Assembly (NCBI RefSeq): GCF_032062105.1
Contig: NW_026923116.1
Span: 124,001 to 188,000, forward strand
Reading direction: 5' to 3'
Source of the DNA: Saccostrea cucullata
Lineage: Eukaryota
Length of the DNA stretch: 64,000 bases
Shown: positions 31,301-37,300 of the stretch, in pieces
How positions within the stretch are numbered: position 1 is the first letter of the stretch
Layout of the letters: each line of letters opens with the position of its first letter
Position numbers and translations under genes: made by a program
The notes under the pieces: model-generated
The model's database searches: none
What the model was told of the DNA's origin: nothing
What the model saw: the letters and a program-made list of their open reading frames with translations, nothing else

Positions 31301-34300
31301 CATTCCAAAATTAAAATATTTAAGCAATTTTAATCTGATTTTGAAATAGAACTACATAAAAAATTTAAACTAGTTATTCTTCATGAAAATGTAATTAAAA
31401 TCCAGCATCTGAAGCAAATTTGAGAGTTTTCATCTCTTGATGCAACATTTGTGCAAGTTTGGTTTATACAATGTTATATAAGCCTTATAGTTTTTTGGTA
31501 ATAGACCTGCACCCATTACTTTTACCTGGTCTATTATCTGAAAATGTAAGTCGAATTCAGCATCCGAAGCAAGTCCATTAGTGTGCATCCTAAGATGTAT
31601 CATCCATGCAAGTTTGCTCATTATAGGGCTCATAGTTAATTGGAAATGAAACATGCATCAAAAACTAACATTTTCACTCATCAACAAAAAGTAGGTCAGA
31701 TTCATCATCCGAAGCAAGCCCAGTAGTTTGCATCCTTATATGTATCATCCACGCAAGTTTGGTCATTTAAGAACTCATACTTACTTGGAAATGAATCATG
31801 CACCAAAAACTTTAACCTATTCACTCAACTGGAAAATGTAGGTCAGATACAGCATCCGAAGCAAGCCTGGTAGTATACATCCTTATATGTATAATCCATG
31901 CTAGTTTGGCCAACATAGGGCTTATAGTTACTTGGAAATGAAACCTGCACCAAAAACTTTAACTTGTTCACTGAACCGGAAAATGTAGGTCAGATTCAGC
32001 ATCCGAAGCAAGCCCAGTAGTATGCATCCTTAGATATATCATCCATGCAAGTTTGGTCAACATAGGGCTTATAGTTACTTGGAAATGACACCTGCACCAA
32101 AAAACTTTAATCTGTTCACTCAACCGTAAAATGTAGGTCAGATTCAGCATCCGAAGCAAGCCTGGTAGTATGCATCCGTAGATGTATCATCCATGCAAGT
32201 TTGGTCTACATAGGGCTTATAGTTACTTGGAAATGAAACCTGCACCAAAAACTTTAACTTGTTCACTCAACCGTAAAATGTAGGTCAGATTCAGCATCCG
32301 AAGCAAGCCTGGTAGTATGCATCCTTAGATGTATCATCCATGCAAGTTTGGTCAACATAGGGCTTATAGTTACTTGGAAATGAAACCTACACCAAAAACT
32401 GCACCAAAAATGTTAACCTGCTCCAAAAACATTAACCTGGTCATTCCTTTGCTGAAATTGCAGCATCTGAAACTTTGACTGGTACAATGAAACACACTAG
32501 AATCACCTTCCATGCTTGTCTAATCAATATAGGACACAGAAGTACTTAAAAAGAAAACTGCTCCAAAAAACTTAACTTTAACCTGGGACGCCGACACCGA
32601 CGCCGAGGGTATTACATAAGCTCCCCCAACTTCGTTGAGGTGAGCTAAAAACTATTCTGATATTAGCAAAGAAAGAAAATAAGAATGTTTACACATTAAA
32701 AAAAATCACTCCGAATAAAAAAATTACAATAGACATACAGTCAAACTTGTTTTAAGAGGCCACCTTTGGGAAGTCTGAAAACTGGCCACTTAAGACAGGT
32801 GGCCTCTTATTCCAGTTTGCCCTCGAAAAAGACATTCGGGCAATGAATAAACAACATTAAGCACTATAGTTAAATTAATTAATCAAATAATAAAACAAGT
32901 CAATTTAACAAAGCCTTTTTATGTGTATATATAATAATTCAAGCTCAATAAAAAAAAAAACTGTTAAAAAGAATTACGATTTTTTAAAGTTTTGTGCGTG
33001 TTTCTGTTCCTACATATTAGTTAAACAAGAAATACATACAGTGCCTGACTACAATCCTTTTTATAAAGAAAAAAATTACATAACAATACAGTTTAATGGT
33101 AAATAAAATAAAGCATAGAAATTTAAGTAAGAATATGTCAATAAAAATTTCACTTGCATATGTTCAAAAACGTGCTCAAAAATAGTCAGCAGTGTAACAC
33201 ACCCCCCCACCCACCCCCCCAAAAAATTAATTCATCGGCAATTAACTTATAAACTTAAGTCTAGTAAATTTTATTGTTTATAAAGCTGTCAGAATTTTTA
33301 TGTAACATACACAGACACACAAATAAAATTAACCAGTTGACCAGAGATGTATTGACGCAGTTGAAAATCATTCCATAACACAGGTGTCATATGCAGTAGA
33401 GCGTGACTAATCCCTATCGATGTCTCCTGATAGTGAAATTCACGAGATAATCATGCCAAGTGAAGCACTTTGTTTTCACAAGAGTAGCAATTAGGGCTTC
33501 TACATGGAATTAAAATCTAAAAGGTGTGAATTTCTTTAGGTAGGGTAGAGGAGAGTATCAATTGTATTTAAATTCTTTTTATTTTTCAATCGGCGATCTT
33601 AAAAAATTATTACAAATTGATCAATCATATAGTAACAGTTTTTTTTCATAAACACAAAGTTCAGTGTATCTATTAGTAATTTGTTTAATTGCATTAATAG
33701 CTAGGTTAAATTGGCTATCGGGATATATTTACCCAAGCGAATGAGTTTAAAAGACATAACAGAATCGCAACAAGTGACGAAATGGCCGCCTATTACAGTG
33801 TCAATCAGGTTGTTGGGGGGAGGATTTGGGTGGCCGCTGGCCACTTTACACAGGTGGCCGTTTATTCCAGTTAAAATATATAGGAAAAATCGTCGGGGGG
33901 AACTGAGAGTGGCCGCTGAACGCGAGTGGCCGTTGATTTCGGGTGGCCGCTAAGACAAGTTTGACTGTATATATTCAGTAAAAATATAAAATAAAATAAT
34001 GAATTCCATAAAGTATACATTGTCTGTTCTCACCTGTTGAGATCCTCATGGAGACCATCTAAAAGAAAGCTAAGTAATTCCTGAGAGTCGTGCTGTTGAA
34101 AGCCATTAAAACGTGGTGCATATTTACCAATGGTCCACTGCAACATAAAATTTTTGTGATGCAATACATTTGACAACAAAAATTGACATGACCAAAAGAC
34201 ATGATATGCATGTGTCATTCCTTACTGTGTAAGTAACATTAGTTTGAATTTGATAGGAGCAAAGGTTATGTAATCTTACTCAGAGTTTATGAGGAGACAT

Positions 34301-37300
34301 GGTTTTGTAATATTACTTGGAGTTAAAGAGGAGCTATGGTTTTGTTAACTTACTCAGAGTTTAAGAGGAGCTATGGTTTTGTAATCTTAATTGGTGTTTA
34401 AGAGGAGCTATGGTTTTGAGGTATTATGGTTTTGTTAGCTCACTCGTAGTTAAGGGTAGCTATGGTTTGAGGAGCTACGGTTTTGTTAACTTACTCGTAG
34501 TTTAAGAGGAGCTATGGTTTTGGAGGTTCCACTCCACAGATCCTTGACTAGTTCTCCGTATCTTTGAGCAATATGTCCCTTCATCCCAAGTGGATTAGAC
34601 CTGCATAGAAATCATGATCATCACATTCAAAATATGTAATTTGTGGATAATCTGAACCATCTTGGTGTTAATTTTAACAGAAAAATATAATTCAGTTGCT
34701 CACCTGTTAAGTTCAAACAGATGTAGTCCTCCAATAAAATACTGAGTTAAAGGCCAAGTGTTAGACACACACTGTACAGCAGCATTCATAAAACAAGTGT
34801 TTCCTAAATTGTTAAGACCTGTAGCTCCTTTCTGGGTGGGTACTATAAAGACAAAATAAAATTAATTATTTCATGTTATCTGCAGATCACTAGTGTAAAA
34901 CTTTTTTTTATATTCTAATTCCATAAAACAAAAATGATTTTACCTATAAATTTACATGTACATGTTTACTTCATTTTTAAAAAAAAATCTACAACATTTT
35001 TATATAAAGTAACTGATGAAGAATAATATGAACCTTACCTTGTTCTTTCCGACATGTTTTATTTTTTGCCAGCTGAGACATTTCTTCAGGCCATGTCAAG
35101 TCCTTGTTTCGGACTGAAATTAATAGTTTTGTAACCTAATTACCTTTTAAAGCTCAATTTACATAAGAAAGCTCAATGTACATAAGAATTAACCTCACAG
35201 AGAAGAAAAACCAAGACTGAAGCATCATGTATCACAAATCAAGTCTTTTCAATCAAAACTTACCCTCTATCAATAGAGACTGGTTTTCTTCTACTCCACA
35301 ATCCTCTACTGTCATGGATTCATCTTCTAGGAGTGTCATGCTCTGTATAATTAAAATAAATTCAGGTGATATTAAAGCTAATTTCCGCAATGTTCTGATG
35401 TAACTTCTGGCCATTAGAAAAAGGGGATGATCTAAACAGATGCTTGAATTATACACAGCTTTATTTTTAGAAGCAAACACATGGGGTACTAAGAATGAAT
35501 CTGACACTTCTGCAGTAATCTTGCACAAAAAACATCTGCTTTAAATTATTGATTCTCCTGAAGCATTTTCATTTAAATAAACACTCCTTATTTTACTATG
35601 AGGAAAATCCAGTTTAGTGAATTGAAAATAAGGTACAGGGACCACTTACTGATTATAAGATTTCCTTATACTATAAACAAGAAACAAAAATTTTAACAAA
35701 GATGAATGTCACTTACATCATCTTTACTTCCGATTTTCCATAACCTGATGTCCTCCCTGACAAATCGGACTTTGGTACAGAGAAATTCATACACCTGCTG
35801 TATGGTGTGTTGCTTGCTGAAGGTTGCTGTGAAAGCAACATAGCGCCTCGGTATAGGCGGTGCACTGGAGACGTAGTTTGTCATGCCTATAGAGAGTTCC
35901 AAAAGTTATGTGTAATTCTATCCTCATATAAATTAATCAAATGAATAATCATACTTTTTCTGCAAGCAAATTAATTCCCTTAAAGCACAATACTCTAGAT
36001 TCTATATTTTACGCAAGTACTTGATATAGCAAAATTGTTCTTTGGCATCAAATCAAGATTAATAATTTGTGAATGGAGGGTTGAAGAAGATTTTATATTG
36101 TTTTAGCACAAGGAAAATAAAACTATTTTTGTGAGCTGTACTTCTTGCAAAATAACACAATAATAAATTCCCCTCAAATATTTAGAAATTTACAGTTCCC
36201 CTAACTGGCTAATGAATACTTACTTAGTGCCATGCCCCCGATTCCAGACATGACCCCTGAGAATGAGGTGGGGTTGGGACGTTGAGGAACCACCTGGTGT
36301 CGTAACAGCTTCACCGTCACAGGGTACAGCTCCAGCTCCGGACTGCCATTGTTATTCTTAGAAGCAATCACCTAATTAACATAATTTGCAAATAAATTTT
36401 ATATTGGGAGAAATGTACTCATTATCTTGAAGTCAGTGGGACAAAGTACAAACTTCAAGATGTATTGGACTTTAGGGTATGAAGGTTAAAACATGTAAAG
36501 AAAAAGAATTTAGGAATTCATGGTATTCCAGATATCAATGTTCAAAATACCAGAGATGAGCTGTTTTTTAGAACTTACGGTTCTGGGTAGAGCGATATTT
36601 CCTCCATACCAGGTTGACAGTGATCGCCATATGACCTCAGGCACCAACTCAAAATCCTTACCCCTCACCAGCATAGTGTCCCTCCGTAGTCTGCCTCCCT
36701 CATTGGTCAGACTTATAACCTACAACCCCGAAACATGTACATTTATTCAATAACAAAAAACACATTTGAGTATTAATTCTTCTACATCATAATTTTTCAC
36801 AAGTTTTTGGAGGTAAAACAATTTATTGAACTGTCAGATTGAAAAAAAAGATAGCTTTGAATTTTTTTGGATTTTTAAAATAAAATCATTTTCTAATCAC
36901 CTCTAAATACACATATTTCTATTTATAAACTCTTTCTTCTTTTGCGTGAATTATTTTCCTGATATTGATAATTTCACCCATTTTTTTCTGAAGCCAAAGT
37001 GGCAGAAATAAAATAAATCTAAGGTAATTCTCAAAACAGTACTTTACCTTTGAATTGTTTGGAGTAATAAGATTAGTGTTATCAATTGGCCCAGGTTTCA
37101 CAGGTTGAGAATTGGTCTGCTGAAGTCCTTTCTTGCGGAGCTTGGGGGAGGGGCCTGGACTAACACTAGTGAGTCCATTAGAGTCTGAGGCAGAAAGACA
37201 AGTCTTGATTGGACTGCTGCATGCCGACTGGGATCTTTGTGGGATTGTGCTGGATTTGAAACCACCATTAATTGAGGTGTTGTATTCAGAGTTCTTTCCC

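Follow-up and report, generated by a model that had tools for sequence, protein, structure and literature searches.

The locus examined here raises the question of why an intron should open with a run of imperfect copies of its own exon-intron boundary, and whether such a structure requires a process directed at 5' splice sites. It lies in the gene USP32 of the oyster Saccostrea cucullata, within a stretch of 64,000 nucleotides (nt) of RefSeq assembly GCF_032062105.1 (contig NW_026923116.1, positions 124,001 to 188,000, forward strand), which we refer to as the window and whose numbering is used throughout. Our analyses indicated that the array is probably a neutral "mirage" minisatellite, that is, an ordinary tandem duplication which is tolerated because the first donor wins.

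A search with a single exon returned USP32 proteins, and the closest named match was the USP32-like protein of S. cucullata itself (P0004). We mapped 30 exons on the minus strand, with GT/AG boundaries, and their spliced translation was identical to P0004 at 1326 of 1326 residues; the gene extends beyond the left end of the window. Pfam domains in the USP32 protein were UCH, USP32_N, DUSP, and EF-hands. The donor of the exon beside the array (Table 1) is in phase 0 and reads CGA/GTAAGT, where the slash marks the exon-intron boundary, with 34494 as the first intron base. The host intron occupies 34494-34138 on the minus strand and is 357 nt long.

The repeat unit comprises 27 nt of exon and 10 nt of intron and therefore spans the boundary. 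Beyond the real junction, at 34484-34233 (minus strand), there are six full 37-nt copies (U1 to U6) and two 16-nt half-copies, arranged in transcript order as U0 (the founding unit), half-copy a, U1, half-copy b, and U2 to U6. Tandem Repeats Finder (TRF) reported arrays at 34255-34527 with periods of 37 (81% matches), 74 (86%), and 51 (80%). The copies account for 252 of the 357 intron bases, and the intron without them would measure approximately 105 nt, close to the shortest USP32 intron (103 nt). An initial annotation, made from the sequence alone, had described six or seven decayed copies of about 37 bp; that count agrees with six full and two half-copies, but the array runs 31 nt further than was proposed, to 34233. 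The same annotation was correct that several copies have lost the donor consensus, as GT is lost in two of the six (U2 and U6) and kept in the other four. Donor scores come from a matrix derived from 43 other window donors; on it, all 44 correctly placed donors score 4.9-11.6. A donor-like ACA/GTAAGG scoring 6.9 was seen at 34220-34228 (minus strand), just past U6, and may be the remnant of a further unit or a chance occurrence.

Agreement of the full copies with the real junction ranges from 24 to 35 of 37 bases. By comparison, scanning 44,743 other positions within introns gave a maximum of 22 of 37 (mean 10.1), and when the unit was restricted to its 27 exon bases the maximum over 45,173 positions was 18. 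U6 was counted as a true copy because its 24 of 37 matches in register exceed the null maximum. Based on this comparison of units with random intron sequence, which the initial annotation had suggested as a check, all six copies stand above the null, and the existence of the junction-spanning array as described is confirmed.

The protein evidence points to the first donor as the one that is used. In P0004 and in 95 of 97 named homologues the residues LKLR continue into WTI, as splicing from the first donor would give; the two remaining homologues are without this region. The predicted read-out of all four GT-bearing copies is Val-Ser-stop, and transcripts with such a premature stop are expected to be removed by nonsense-mediated decay. 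Eighteen short read-through proteins also matched the exon, and we examined the nine that were clearly outside the vertebrate range, which share 28-31 of 35 exon residues and include no close oyster. All nine run out of the exon at one and the same codon, and the residue that follows is Val, as expected from a GT donor. The decoys of U1 and U3 score within the range of real donors, those of U4 and U5 score lower, and U2 and U6 have no GT.

Comparison among the units was informative about how the array grew. Alternate units are closer to one another (4, 5, and 10 differences) than neighbouring units are (6, 6, 7, and 13), with changes shared among U2, U4, and U6 and between U3 and U5. Because alternate units are closer, and because the 74-nt period gave more matches in TRF than the 37-nt period, growth appears to have proceeded partly as a 74-nt dimer, and on account of such growth the changes in the copies are not independent. 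The terminal unit is the most diverged, with 13 differences in U6 versus 2-7 in U1 to U5.

USP32 carries a second donor-side array near the left end of the window (Table 1), which the initial annotation had placed at 233-1226 and which we delimit at 239-1228. As it had claimed, the two units are unrelated in sequence and both arrays lie on the donor side; the unrelated units and different divergence uphold the proposal of two independent donor-spanning duplications in one gene. Mean copy identity to the array's own junction is 94% in the second array (17 copies) versus 82% in the array at 34233-34484, and 16 of the 17 decoys of the former are identical to the real donor 9-mer, as against none of six in the latter over positions -3 to +6. 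The description of the 34233-34484 array as the older one holds in the form "older or less homogenised"; greater age is likely and remains unproven, since identity measures the time since the last homogenisation. Two further features were seen near the second array. An inverted repeat (1179-1213, minus strand) lies in the exon end, one arm of which is lost in the 47-nt unit variant. A 21-nt low-complexity repeat (1362-1420, minus strand) lies at the acceptor of the same exon and supplies an additional in-frame CAG 21 nt upstream; its score is borderline relative to the null.

The oyster array resembles structures known from lancelets, in which mirages were described as minisatellite-like tandem copies of an exon-intron boundary with units of 10-160 bp, found in Adh3, the globin genes BflGb6 and BflGb9, troponin C, and PGBD5 (PMC3087553, PMC3902484; here and below, cited papers are used to the extent of the portions available to us). 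Head-to-tail spacing in the oyster array is 37 nt, with variants of 51/53 and 74, and so falls inside that range. In both groups the splice signal is retained in many units and lost from others (GT in four of six in the oyster), and the terminal unit is the most diverged. PGBD5, like USP32, has two arrays at 5' splice sites, and the recurrence of arrays in one gene therefore has a precedent (PMC3902484). The same architecture is silent in the lancelet genes (PMC3087553, PMC3902484), for which length polymorphism and normal splicing were demonstrated, whereas the oyster array is known from one sequence. The oyster differs also in being a bivalve and in that both of its arrays are donor-side, while the globin mirages include acceptor-side examples. 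Our literature search, from which subscription papers were mostly outside coverage, surfaced no bivalve mirage and no genome-wide count of donors versus acceptors, and the portions seen of PMC12783039, PMC2206037, PMC10078293, and PMC2812944 held no such count.

Two human repeats provide evidence on splicing. In the 37-bp variable number tandem repeat (VNTR) of F7 intron 7, the authentic donor is in the first copy and is followed by pseudo-donors, and only the most upstream is used (PMC1557585). The oyster array likewise has a 37-bp unit with the authentic donor in the first one, but the F7 pseudo-sites are identical, whereas the oyster copies are 82% identical and two are without GT. We assume that the shared unit length is coincidental. 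The 25-bp VNTR of ABCA7 intron 18 begins at a splice donor and has a potential donor per unit, one decoy being detectably used (PMC5954066). Unlike the oyster unit, it starts at GT, has no exon part in the description available, and runs to hundreds of copies. In a large reporter library the first of two equal donors was preferred, and acceptors showed no such preference (PMC6783452). The F7, ABCA7, and reporter results all come from mammalian cells, and their transfer to the oyster is our inference. Tandem duplication across splice signals is also the basis of intron gain in the Rogers model and in the potato RdRp case (PMC4974935), with which the oyster duplication shares the crossing of splice signals; it differs in that the unit contains no acceptor and an existing intron grew. 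Intron gain in USP32 was considered and rejected, as there is one intron only (34494-34138) and the nine distant read-through proteins all exit at the same codon.

Together, these data lead us to propose the following course of events. A 37-nt piece crossing the junction was duplicated in tandem into the intron, lengthening it from approximately 105 to 357 nt. The array would then have grown by slippage or unequal exchange, partly as the 74-nt dimer, and left two truncated half-copies. With the most upstream donor in use, splicing would be unharmed, and any leak, which adds Val-Ser-stop, would be removed by nonsense-mediated decay. The copies appear to have decayed roughly evenly, with extra CpG transitions at the CGA codon by the donor. 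Based on the first-donor preference (PMC6783452), donor-spanning duplications would be silent and acceptor-spanning ones would compete, a filter by which donor-side arrays may be commoner because they are tolerated and not because donors are targeted.

Several observations weigh against this interpretation. Tolerance explains donors over acceptors, not donors over the intron interior. We kept by hand seven duplications from 106 TRF rows (score of at least 50, period of at least 15, non-transposon, non-coding, and inside the two genes USP32 and SETD1), leaving out coding repeats, an intergenic 53-mer, and any array within or next to a transposon-like block. If these seven were placed at random, 0.22 would be expected on donors, and two or more have a p of 0.018; this is a post hoc value from two events, but the single result that counts against an entirely passive explanation. 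Both of the long non-transposon, non-coding arrays of the window are on donors, for which p is 0.003 for these two alone. None of the six copies scores as high as the authentic donor, and raw changes are in excess at positions -3 to +6 of the copies (16 of 54 cells, against 24 of 168 at the other positions; Fisher p 0.011). Finally, the decoy use in ABCA7 indicates that the silence of donor arrays is not guaranteed (PMC5954066).

The placement data bear on an alternative in which mutation is directed to donors, with splicing-coupled pausing, R-loops, nicks, or methylated exon-edge chromatin starting tandem duplications at 5' splice sites. For each of the 45 donors and 45 acceptors in USP32 and SETD1, we looked in the neighbouring intron for a copy that crosses the junction, the SETD1 exons being approximate as they were drawn from a distant Mytilus protein and reading by eye. 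Only the two USP32 arrays stood out (scores 133 and 45), while among sampled non-transposon intron positions 4 of 1500 scored 20 or more and none reached 45; the two arrays at 5' splice sites in lancelet PGBD5 (PMC3902484) and the statement that the origin of mirages is unclear (PMC3087553) also fit this alternative. The next best score in the scan was 12, which was reached by 1.3% of 1500 null positions and by the echo at acceptor 1366/1365 (21 nt, low complexity). Arrays at two of 45 donors versus none of 45 acceptors give a Fisher p of 0.49, or 1.0 if that weak echo (1362-1420) is counted. Moreover, n is two, this feature was the reason for choosing the window, and both the transposon mask and the set of seven duplications were hand-drawn. 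A search for a hairpin or GC signature common to both array donors found none: among the 45 donors, that of the 37-nt array ranked 18 for hairpin energy and 24 for GC, and only that of the younger array had a hairpin (z of -2.07, rank 1). The arrays share no boundary microhomology either. The recurrent mechanism at 5' splice sites put forward by the initial annotation was not shown by these counts, although chance placement fits the data poorly (p of about 0.018, post hoc). Lancelet mirages occur at both boundary types (PMC3087553), and a first-donor preference that is absent at acceptors (PMC6783452) would bias the survivors with no donor-directed mutation at all. We consider the donor-directed alternative unlikely.

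The initial annotation had also suggested a joining microhomology, ggtttt, which we rejected. This motif is the unit's own start, as each unit opens with its reverse complement. A true microhomology would be expected once more beyond the last unit, where the motif is absent, and no more than one base is common to the unit boundary and the exon flank. Erosion at the edges could hide an old microhomology. Short repeats would explain secondary changes: by reading of the sequence, CCTC immediately precedes U0 and also ends the half-copies, and in the younger array the unit variant of 47 nt is missing a stretch flanked by two CTGG.

A second alternative, compatible with neutral duplication as an addition to it, is that selection erodes the decoy donors since leaky use wastes transcript. 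In line with the raw excess, the donor 9-mer, with 10 distinct events, ranked first among 29 sliding windows, but neighbouring windows held 8-9 events, and the higher divergence extends over the entire 3' half of the unit (raw p 0.002). When each derived state was counted once, the comparison became 10 versus 17 events (p 0.098), and removal of two CpG transitions reduced it to 8 versus 17 (p 0.25). These transitions affect the codon adjoining the donor, CGA having changed to TGA in U3 and U5 and to CAA in U2 and U4. Observed/expected CpG is 0.36 in USP32 exons and 0.24 in short USP32 introns, which marks the gene as CpG-depleted; oyster gene bodies carry methylation. For GT alone, p was 0.43-0.67, with GT kept in four of six copies where overall divergence predicts 4.08. 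A consensus site that decays at random will lose score in any case, and U3 retains GTAAGT. Nearly all of the younger decoys are intact, so that strong decoys are evidently tolerated. The suggestion that donor positions mutate faster than the rest was not supported, as the excess fades once shared and CpG changes are counted and GT survival is neutral, and we regard targeted erosion of the decoys as quite unlikely.

It is very doubtful that the copies are functional alternative donors which use nonsense-mediated decay to tune the level of USP32. GT is present in four copies, two of them in the score range of real donors, and one repeat unit is used in human ABCA7 (PMC5954066); however, the copies are decaying (82% identity), no decoy is conserved, and by eye there was no exon echo in the 6-38 residue tails of the nine distant read-through proteins, which is weak evidence. 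That the array is an assembly artefact, or a transposon fragment resembling the exon end by chance, is hardly credible: tandem arrays are prone to misassembly and the window is rich in transposon-linked satellites, but the copies differ from each other by 2-18 bases in a structured pattern, the unit encodes conserved USP32 residues, and eight of nine matches to the 16-nt unit start are inside the array, the ninth being at chance level (0.52 expected). The unit was also rejected as a dispersed transposon-derived satellite, there being no copies above chance elsewhere in the window, and Rfam gave nothing at gathering score, its two matches reaching 22 of 75 and 17.5 of 53 bits.

Table 1. Features of the USP32 gene around the 37-nt array and position of the second array (window numbering).
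Feature	Position	Strand	Basis or remark
USP32 micro-exon, 18 nt	38441-38424	minus	supplies six residues otherwise missing versus P0004; in reference isoform
USP32 coding exon; ends in the 27 nt (KTIAPLKLR) that form the exonic share of the unit	34495..34600	minus	spliced map identical to P0004, GT/AG boundaries
U0, founding unit, authentic donor CGA/GTAAGT, matrix score 8.1	34485..34521	minus	27 exon nt + 10 intron nt
Half-copy a, first 16 nt of unit, without donor	34469..34484	minus	
U1, decoy CGA/GTGAGC at 34443, score 6.2, 6 differences (31/37)	34434..34469	minus	
Half-copy b, 16 nt, 3 mismatches	34418..34433	minus	
U2, GT lost (CAA/TTAAGA), 6 differences (31/37)	34381..34417	minus	
U3, decoy TGA/GTAAGT at 34353, score 5.6, 2 differences (35/37)	34344..34380	minus	
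U4, weak decoy CAA/GTAATA, score 4.3, 6 differences (31/37)	34307..34343	minus	
U5, decoy TGA/GTAAGA, score 4.3, 7 differences (30/37)	34270..34306	minus	
U6, terminal, most decayed, GT lost, 13 differences (24/37 in register)	34233..34269	minus	
Remaining 95 nt of the 357-nt intron (unique 3' sequence), acceptor TTGCAG at end	34138..34232	minus	spliced map
Following USP32 exon (WTIGKY...)	34034..34137	minus	spliced map
Second, younger donor array of USP32; real donor 1174/1173 + 17 copies, spacing 47 or 61-63 nt	239..1228	minus	TRF + junction alignment

Elsewhere in the window, a Helitron-like element (6409-13610, minus strand) lies inside a 17.8-kb USP32 intron and has an intact 1846-residue frame with Helitron_like_N, DUF6570, and PIF1 domains, an upstream 519-residue frame with Herpes_teg_N, and a 51-bp coding repeat at the junction of the two frames. 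A rhodopsin-family G-protein-coupled receptor (7tm_1) in a single frame (25478-27157, plus strand) lies antisense in the 7.2-kb USP32 intron 28537-21362. A SETD1-like histone methyltransferase gene occupies 52245-62511 (minus strand), with 15 coding exons approximately mapped and no junction with an echo. A 28-bp two-copy duplication (40899-40956, minus strand) in an intron interior has a donor-like GGTAAG and is unrelated to the upstream exon end. Intronic satellite arrays with a 146-168 bp period were found at 14535-14887, 15936-16953, 22657-23498, and 31484-32400, and we take these to be transposon-associated by analogy with bivalve satellites.

The oyster array extends the known mirage class to a bivalve, as a single locus that is otherwise ordinary and apparently has no effect on the protein. 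It shows one route by which a short intron triples in length, and the gene holds one young array and one old. We think it improbable that oyster 5' splice sites are hotspots for tandem-duplication starts, through a mutational bias tied to splicing or to exon edges, with a few per cent of donors carrying mirages of graded age. If that were true, introns would be lengthened several-fold and a genome-wide natural series would time the purging of decoy donors. Should the rate of two in 45 donors hold genome-wide, hundreds of natural cases would be available for testing the origin of mirages and the first-donor rule.

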